Assembly (NCBI RefSeq): GCF_003334815.1
Contig: NZ_QOWO01000006.1
Length of the DNA: 64,000 nucleotides
DNA from: Escherichia coli
GTDB taxonomy: Bacteria; Pseudomonadota; Gammaproteobacteria; Enterobacterales; Enterobacteriaceae
Direction: 5' to 3' (one strand)
The notes beneath the pieces are model-generated. The model had not been told where the DNA came from. It did no database searches and worked only from the letters and a program-made list of their open reading frames with translations. A program made the translations under genes and the position numbers. Each line of letters starts with the position of its first letter. Position 1 is the stretch's first letter. This document shows, one piece after another, positions 23,522 through 23,704 of this stretch.

Positions 23522-23704
23522 GCCGGATGCGACGCTTGCCGCATCTTATCCAGCCTACGGGATTGCACATGTAGGGCGGATAAGGCGTTCACGCCGCATC
23601 CGCCAGTGGCGCGGTGCAATTGCCGGATGCGACGCTTGCCGCGTCTTATCCAGCCTACGGGATTGCACATGTAGGGCGGATAAGGCGTTTACGCCGCATC
23701 CGCC
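23522..23704. repeat. Tandem pair of 83-bp palindromic BIME/REP units (100-bp period) between eutG and eutH
   Basis: Two near-identical copies (23522-23604, 23622-23704), each a REP / inverted-REP pair beginning GCCGGATGCGACGCTTGCCGC. Confidence 0.85.

Follow-up and report, generated by a model that had tools for sequence, protein, structure and literature searches.

What does a tandem pair of palindromic repeats do when it fills the space between two genes of a polycistronic operon? The question is raised by the eutG-eutH junction in a 64,000-nucleotide stretch of Escherichia coli DNA (hereafter the window), where an earlier note, made from the letters alone, had described two near-identical units of 83 bp at a period of 100 bp, had named them a tandem BIME pair within the eut operon, and had proposed that their hairpins might decouple the expression of the genes on either side. 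We find that the element is REP178, an ordinary BIME-2 cluster that is already known. To go by the behavior of its class and by the predicted folding of its RNA, its most likely role would be a stabilizing one.

Anatomy and identity of the repeat

NCBIfam equivalog models identify the flanking genes as eutG (888 bits) and eutH (874 bits), and the neighboring eutE, eutJ and eutA occur in the same order as in the E. coli eut operon. For eutG, the listed open reading frame runs from a GTG at 22305 and encodes 404 aa; the NF011998 match takes in residues 10-404 of that product, and the gene is 1188 nt long in the K-12 annotation. The spacer between the two genes measures 216 nt and is filled by the two 83-bp units, at 23522-23604 and 23622-23704, which differ from each other at two sites, 23543/23643 (A/G) and 23590/23690 (C/T). 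Coordinates, length and spacing of the units were all reproduced: a repeat search recovered an 88-nt direct repeat in two copies (23518-23605 and 23618-23705) with 97% identity and a start-to-start distance of 100, while Tandem Repeats Finder reported for the spacer a period of 100, 1.9 copies, 97% matches and a score of 356.

Within the element, four imperfect palindromes of 37, 34, 37 and 34 nt, all of them hairpin-forming in prediction, alternate in the order z2(+), y(-), z2(+), y(-) (Table 1); the published lengths are 37 nt for z2 and 35 nt for y REPs (PMC8266576). On the + strand the REPs of the z2 kind read GCCGGATGCGACGC...CTTATCCAGCCTAC. A GTAG foot and an internal mismatch in the stem are features of E. 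coli REPs (PMC8266576). Here the foot is found at 23571-23574 and 23671-23674, its complement CTAC at 23555-23558 and 23655-23658, and the predicted fold of the y hairpins contains a 2x2 internal loop in which AA faces GC. The description of the units as palindromic applies only loosely, as the two arms are distinct REP types (z2 and y) with their outer 14-16 nt complementary at 86-88%.

The structural call and the naming as a tandem BIME pair within the eut operon were likewise correct. BIME-2 elements combine z2 and y REPs through a short linker in tandem, with a number per locus that varies among E. coli strains, and BIME-1 elements possess a long linker with an IHF site (Ton-Hoang et al., PMC3333891). 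The element resembles the BIME-2 family (Bachellier, Gilson and Hofnung; PMC3333891) in its alternating z2 and y REPs, its short linkers of 12 and 17 nt, its tandem arrangement and its strain-variable copy number. An IHF site, as in BIME-1, was considered and rejected, no IHF consensus occurring in 23500-23720. The y REPs have a locus-specific stem, GGCGGAT/ATCCGCC, whereas other y-like REPs of the window have GCCGGAT/ATCCGGC.

Base for base, 23521-23703 of the window equals 2568322-2568140 of NC_000913.3. As exactly this interval is entered as 'REP178, Tandem, eutG / eutH' in the supplement of Harris et al. (bioRxiv 10.64898/2026.03.23.713779), the element is a catalogued REP cluster with no difference from REP178 of E. 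coli K-12 within the repeat itself; the name is taken from that supplement because the RefSeq record of MG1655 carries no REP features. The identity with NC_000913.3 spans 22806-26362, and in comparison with K-12 W3110, which has the same 216-nt spacer, 9 of 25,001 positions differ, none of them within 22806-32169. MG1655 has its eutA and eutB separated by the cryptic prophage CPZ-55 (6.8 kb). The strain of the window, like W3110, lacks this prophage and has an uninterrupted eut operon, with eutB (26374) directly following eutA (stop at 26362). Many E. coli genomes, including that of K-12 MG1655, match a 401-bp query around the element with 100% identity, and the query finds a median of 9 places per genome across 5426 genomes. 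These many dispersed extragenic copies, along with four other REPs in the window (Table 1), show the element to be a member of a dispersed E. coli REP family. A literature search found no paper on both eutG and repetitive extragenic palindromes.

At 23574-23655 (+) the Rfam model RF02564 (naRNA4) scores 71.8 bits, above its gathering threshold of 59.5, with E = 9.7e-11 in a search over the whole window, and the 17-nt head-to-head linker aligns with the linker of the model with a 4-nt insertion. Since the model, which was built on the REP325 unit, describes a y-linker-z hairpin pair, the match indicates sequence-family membership only and not a shared function. REP325 of the yjdM-yjdN operon is likewise a BIME cluster between co-oriented genes of one operon; its 12 hairpins reduce expression of the downstream gene roughly 10-fold, whereas REP178 has four hairpins. 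Elsewhere in the window, an Rfam match to the RtT RNA (63569-63694, - strand; 47.3 bits, gathering threshold 45) is located a short way downstream of the tRNA genes valU-valX-valY-lysV (63728-64000), on the xapR side of the cluster. The RtT RNA is best known from the tyrT operon.

Table 1. Features of the eutG-eutH junction, other REP/BIME elements of the window and the G-rich repeat allele. Coordinates are those of the window, except in the last two rows, where they are those of the named locus.
Feature	Coordinates	Strand	Description	Basis
eutG CDS	22332-23519	+	395 aa; TAA at 23517-23519	NCBIfam NF011998 EutG equivalog, 888 bits
REP 1, z2	23522-23558	+	37 nt, GCCGGATGCGACGCTTGCCGCATCTTATCCAGCCTAC; RNA fold -10.8 kcal/mol, z -0.69	motif scan
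Tail-to-tail linker, unit 1	23559-23570		12 nt, GGGATTGCACAT; z2 to y	sequence reading
REP 2, y	23571-23604	-	34 nt, + strand reads GTAGGGCGGATAAGGCGTTCACGCCGCATCCGCC; fold -20.9 kcal/mol, z -4.59	motif scan
Head-to-head linker, unit 1 to unit 2	23605-23621		17 nt, AGTGGCGCGGTGCAATT	sequence reading
REP 3, z2, unit 2	23622-23658	+	37 nt; fold -16.6 kcal/mol, z -2.85	motif scan
Tail-to-tail linker, unit 2	23659-23670		same sequence as in unit 1	sequence reading, repeat search
REP 4, y, unit 2	23671-23704	-	34 nt; fold -20.9 kcal/mol, z -3.83	motif scan
eutH leader, conserved	23705-23735	+	31 nt; RBS GGGAG at 23723-23727	comparison of the spacers of 48 loci; sequence reading
eutH CDS	23736-24962	+	408 aa	NCBIfam NF011665 EutH equivalog, 873.6 bits, full length
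Other REP/BIME	10127-10181		between tktB and ypfG	K-12 mapping
Other REP/BIME	35490-35572		between yfeW and yfeX	K-12 mapping
Other REP/BIME, REP175	45411-45446		between cysA and cysM	K-12 mapping
Other REP/BIME, REP174	46436-46518		between cysM and yfeS	K-12 mapping; Rfam ES036/CssrF match at 46442-46484
G-rich repeat allele, locus L007	421-589
G-rich repeat allele, locus L063	7769-7937	-

Alleles in Escherichia and the same junction in other species

In the representative E. coli genomes whose alleles were read directly, the length of the spacer is 16 + 100n nt with n ranging from 1 to 5: there is one unit in locus L002, two in the window, three in L005 and ATCC 8739 (L009), four in L004 and L006, and five in E. 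coli 042 (L008) and MS20677 (L010). Unit number, which the earlier note had singled out for comparison, does differ between strains, and REP178 grows and shrinks by single-unit steps. To gauge the frequencies of these alleles, we took an evenly spaced sample of 60 of the 5426 complete genomes, with the unit number derived from the match span: two units (23 genomes) and one unit (18) predominate over five (5), three (4) and four (2), with the remaining 8 genomes having other configurations. In O157 a degenerate single unit occupies a spacer of 99 nt. Other members of Escherichia have one unit (E. whittamii), three (E1V33) or about 4.5 to 5.5 (MOD1-EC7003 and SCPM-O-B-8794).

Across the Escherichia alleles at this junction, the GGCGGAT/ATCCGCC stem is found in 35 of 42 y-type REPs. 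Four of the 42, belonging to one Escherichia lineage, display GGTGGAT/ATCCACC, a two-sided change that preserves the pairing. In Escherichia sp. MOD1-EC7003 (L053) this variant is present in four of five y REPs, a pattern which, as read from the sequences, suggests amplification out of one mutated founder unit. In the same genome (ATGCCGGACATGTAGGG...) and in E. coli SCPM-O-B-8794 (L012; ATAACGGATGCGACATGTAGGG...) the first z2 REP, by the eutG stop, is internally deleted.

In an alternative allele, the place of the BIME at 23520-23704 is taken by a G-rich palindromic repeat that is unrelated to it (core GGGGAGAGGGTTAGGGTGAGGGG) and is inserted at the identical point, in a spacer of 169 nt. This repeat, used as a query, is at least 80% covered in 384 of the 5426 genomes (about 7%), including that of the Crohn's disease isolate LF82. 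It is dispersed too, at a median of 6 places per genome, and it may resemble the 'boxC' repeats.

A scan for EutH with one genome per species retrieved 51 loci, and in 48 of them both limits of the eutG-eutH spacer could be placed. In six Citrobacter genomes the site is empty, with a spacer of 27 nt that comprises the eutH leader alone: it aligns with the final 27-31 nt of the E. coli spacer, and the 31-nt leader of the window is the counterpart of the entire spacer in these repeat-free species. The spacers are 32 nt long in Yokenella and a Pluralibacter MAG, and 34-48 nt in Buttiauxella, Hafnia, Morganella and others. Occupied sites are of several kinds. Salmonella enterica diarizonae has one REP, which begins 2 nt past the stop, in a spacer of 67 nt; C. 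sedlakii has one inverted REP in 60 nt; the C. freundii group, C. koseri and Pseudocitrobacter have a BIME of 119-123 nt in the opposite, head-to-head arrangement; and the Klebsiella species have 170-216 nt with their own REP type. The repeat is thus an insertion into a short ancestral spacer, and different repeats have settled at this junction on more than one occasion; eutG-eutH is the one spacer in this part of the operon that tolerates insertions. Comparison at the sequence level shows REP178 to be absent or swapped for other repeats in related lineages.

Many of the 34-48-nt spacers of REP-free genera contain short GC stems, for example GCCTG...CAGGC (loci L037-L048, L050, L056 and L057). 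A small ancestral hairpin at the junction was considered and rejected, the stems of Morganella, Buttiauxella, Pluralibacter and Entomohabitans being no better than those of shuffled sequences (z -0.6 to 0).

This variability invites the interpretation that the repeat is a pure passenger, i.e., selfish or neutral DNA that a permissive spacer accommodates without any measurable change in eut expression. The range of 1 to 5 units, the degenerate copy of O157, the unrelated repeat in 384 of 5426 genomes and the empty 27-nt sites of several Citrobacter are all consistent with it. However, the y stem is kept in 35 of 42 copies, with the compensatory GGTGGAT/ATCCACC change in one Escherichia lineage, and distinct REP families are found at one junction across genera. 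To judge from the compared spacers, the presence of different kinds of REP families at this junction in several genera could reflect selection for a hairpin there, which the passenger interpretation does not predict. Both stem conservation and recurrent occupation could equally stem from recognition by the transposase and from an insertion hotspot. On balance, we consider a passenger devoid of any effect possible, though on the unlikely side.

Hairpins, termination and translation at the junction

The premise of the earlier note that REP/BIME hairpins can shield upstream mRNA and attenuate transcription is established for the class (PMC6061677; for REP325, bioRxiv 10.64898/2026.03.23.713779). 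In term-seq data, many E. coli transcripts have their stable 3' ends at hairpins free of a U-tract, which block PNPase and RNase II (PMC6061677). At the eutG-eutH junction the y hairpins have predicted folding energies of -20.9 kcal/mol each, far beyond those of shuffles (z -4.6 and -3.8). Those of the z2 type are less stable (-10.8 and -16.6 kcal/mol), the whole units fold at -37.7 and -43.6 kcal/mol, and the 241-nt region around the element has a fold z of -3.3. The strong y hairpins make protection of the upstream mRNA plausible, and protection of the eutS-to-eutG RNA is the best-founded expectation that we infer for this junction from the modeled folds. The stabilizers of malE-malF and hisJ-hisQ (Newbury et al. 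1987, as cited in PMC6061677) offer a parallel in that they too are an intercistronic REP pair in a polycistronic operon and, as described there, share with REP178 strong hairpins without a U-tract. They differ in that differential expression was measured for them, whereas at eut the upstream product EutG is scarcer than several downstream products. Against an exonuclease barrier stands the weakness of the first hairpin in the allele of the window (-10.8 kcal/mol, z -0.69). Further, by the account of Harris et al. (bioRxiv 10.64898/2026.03.23.713779), REPs do not lengthen mRNA half-lives uniformly.

Taking these observations together, we regard it as probable on the whole that REP178 is a co-transcribed BIME-2 whose hairpins function as an exonuclease barrier, with read-through largely intact and only a modest decoupling. 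In such a mechanism, the repeat would have arrived and been amplified by the usual REP/BIME routes, namely the transposase RayT, or recombination or slippage between the 100-bp repeats. Upon induction of the operon it would be transcribed within the polycistronic mRNA. Its four hairpins, chiefly the two of the y type, would then block 3'-to-5' exonucleases such that eutS-to-eutG decay intermediates persist, and read-through into eutHABCLKR would be mostly kept, making the decoupling a modest one and not a switch.

A partial terminator or attenuator would separate the two blocks more sharply: transcription would pause at the hairpins, some transcripts would end there with or without the help of Rho, the expression of eutHABCLKR would fall below that of eutS-G, and the copy number of the unit would set the ratio. 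Genome-wide, tandem gene pairs with a REP show a median log-transformed ratio of upstream to downstream expression of 0.96 versus -0.09, and the junction has an untranslated stretch of 186 nt between the two coding sequences. REP325 is described as cutting its downstream gene about 10-fold in a partly Rho-dependent manner (bioRxiv 10.64898/2026.03.23.713779). However, a scan of 23000-24300 detected no terminator composed of a hairpin and a U-tract, the last hairpin being followed by AATAAATAACAAC with no U run. Nor was a C-rich, G-poor Rho loading region found on the sense strand, where the C/G ratio does not exceed 1.16 inside the repeats and lies at 0.5-0.95 in the ~240 nt downstream of them (23700-23960). 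The two in vitro Rho-binding peaks recorded near REP178 in the supplement of Harris et al. map to 23642-23787 and 23292-23453 on the - strand of the window and are both antisense to eut, although this screen also missed REP325 and is not decisive. Moreover, fragments of REP325 with 2-4 hairpins were without detectable Rho dependence, which was seen with the full 12-hairpin array only (bioRxiv 10.64898/2026.03.23.713779), and the eutH RBS lies just 19 nt past the last hairpin.

The antisense strand of eutG and eutH is C-rich and G-poor on either side of the repeat, with a C/G ratio of up to 2.3, in stretches that overlie these two peaks. Going by this composition and the mapped peaks, antisense transcripts may be ended by Rho at two sites that bracket REP178.

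Protein levels in W3110, which has the same two-unit spacer, bear on the same point. In quantitative proteomics of this strain on ethanolamine (EutQ = 100), the values were 96 for EutM, 27 for EutE, 11 for EutS, 10 for EutD and 7 each for EutG and EutP, and among the downstream products 39 for EutL, 37 for EutB, 24 for EutC and 8 for EutK (PMC11334477). With EutB, EutC and EutL this abundant, the pattern is not that of a strong polar stop at eutG-eutH and is compatible with a modest one; the levels exclude strong polarity only, as translation and turnover also set abundance. In the Salmonella eut operon the activator gene eutR comes last and is induced through read-through from the main promoter; given this dependence of eutR on read-through, a strong internal stop would break autoinduction. 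The suggestion that the element decouples eutS-G from eutHABCLKR found no support here, and the lack of a terminator-like site, the lack of a C-rich Rho loading region on the sense strand and the abundant downstream proteins in W3110 speak against a strong effect; we judge partial termination at this junction to be unlikely.

Other sources of information on the junction were examined and set aside. An internal promoter for eutH was rejected, as there is no sigma-70-like match in 23000-24300. In RNA-seq data for LF82, eutH stands at 514 versus 168 RPKM for eutG, i.e., 3 times as high (PMC6379400). These data were discarded as a direct test of the BIME, since LF82 carries the G-rich repeat allele with its 169-nt spacer and its eutH/eutG ratio is therefore uninformative on this point. 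The uninduced baseline counts of 40-93 for eutJ, eutG, eutH and eutA in the DESeq results of Harris et al. were unusable, with the genes being in separate tables.

The first REP of the element lies so close to eutG, beginning at 23522 and thus 2 nt past the TAA, that a terminating ribosome would have to melt its base. Stalled ribosomes and a lower rate of translation have been reported for REPs at most 15 nt from a stop codon (Liang and Deutscher, as summarized in PMC12306157). It is conceivable that a terminating ribosome stalls at the first REP and that tmRNA rescue and mRNA cleavage follow, which would lower the output of EutG alone; such dampening could operate alongside an exonuclease barrier. 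The distance falls inside the 15-nt range, S. enterica diarizonae and Citrobacter sp. NCU1 likewise have a REP close to the stop, and EutG is among the scarcest Eut enzymes in W3110 (7 versus 27 for EutE; PMC11334477). Nevertheless, the first hairpin is weak here, no better than its shuffles, and low EutG may have many other causes. A dampening of EutG through the stop-proximal REP is no more than suggested by these observations, and we deem it rather unlikely.

An ATG abuts the eutG stop (TAAATG) and opens a reading frame of 66 aa (23520-23720, + strand) that covers the entire element and stops 15 nt short of eutH. We considered a small protein or a frame serving translational coupling and rejected it as a gene: the unit, at 100 nt, is not divisible by 3, and the 66-codon frame stays open with one or two units only, being broken in alleles with 3 to 5. 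In all likelihood the frame is a chance product of the G+C-rich repeat sequence, though gene finders may still call it.

DNA-level roles and the meaning of copy number

A different possibility is that REP178 acts as DNA, as a preferred gyrase site that provides supercoiling relief or insulation in the middle of a strongly inducible operon of 14 kb, or else that it gives rise to a naRNA4-like RNA that binds HU. BIME-2 elements are enriched in gyrase cleavage sites, with a preference for y-type REPs, but the cleavage concerns a subset of BIME-2 elements only, and the supplementary text of the gyrase study makes no mention of eutG, eutH or REP178 (PMC6379681). The y-linker-z2 segment 23574-23655 is above the Rfam gathering threshold for naRNA4; yet the nucleoid compaction ascribed to REP325/naRNA4 is disputed in the preprint of Harris et al. 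(bioRxiv 10.64898/2026.03.23.713779). Further, REP178 is missing from related species and from about 7% of E. coli. We view a role of this type as very unlikely.

Returning to the reading of REP178 as a co-transcribed exonuclease barrier, its expected effect on eut expression is small, and the regulatory idea is the generic REP hypothesis. E. coli K-12 has about 350 annotated REP elements, and this one, whose behavior is typical of the class, matters little as it stands. A bolder view would be that the unit number, from 1 to 5, is a heritable dial for the ratio of two blocks of the operon, one upstream that encodes the shell and the enzymes of aldehyde handling and one downstream that encodes EutH, the lyase EutBC and the activator EutR, and that the recurrent arrival of REPs is due to selection for a hairpin and not to a hotspot. 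We hold this to be highly improbable; if true, the independent REP arrivals in Escherichia, Salmonella, Citrobacter and Klebsiella would reflect selection. The locus is also a possible natural test bed for REP copy number: it offers alleles with 0 (in Citrobacter), 1, 2, 3, 4 and 5 units as well as an unrelated repeat, in an inducible operon whose stoichiometry is relevant to microcompartment assembly and whose activator gene lies downstream of the repeat.
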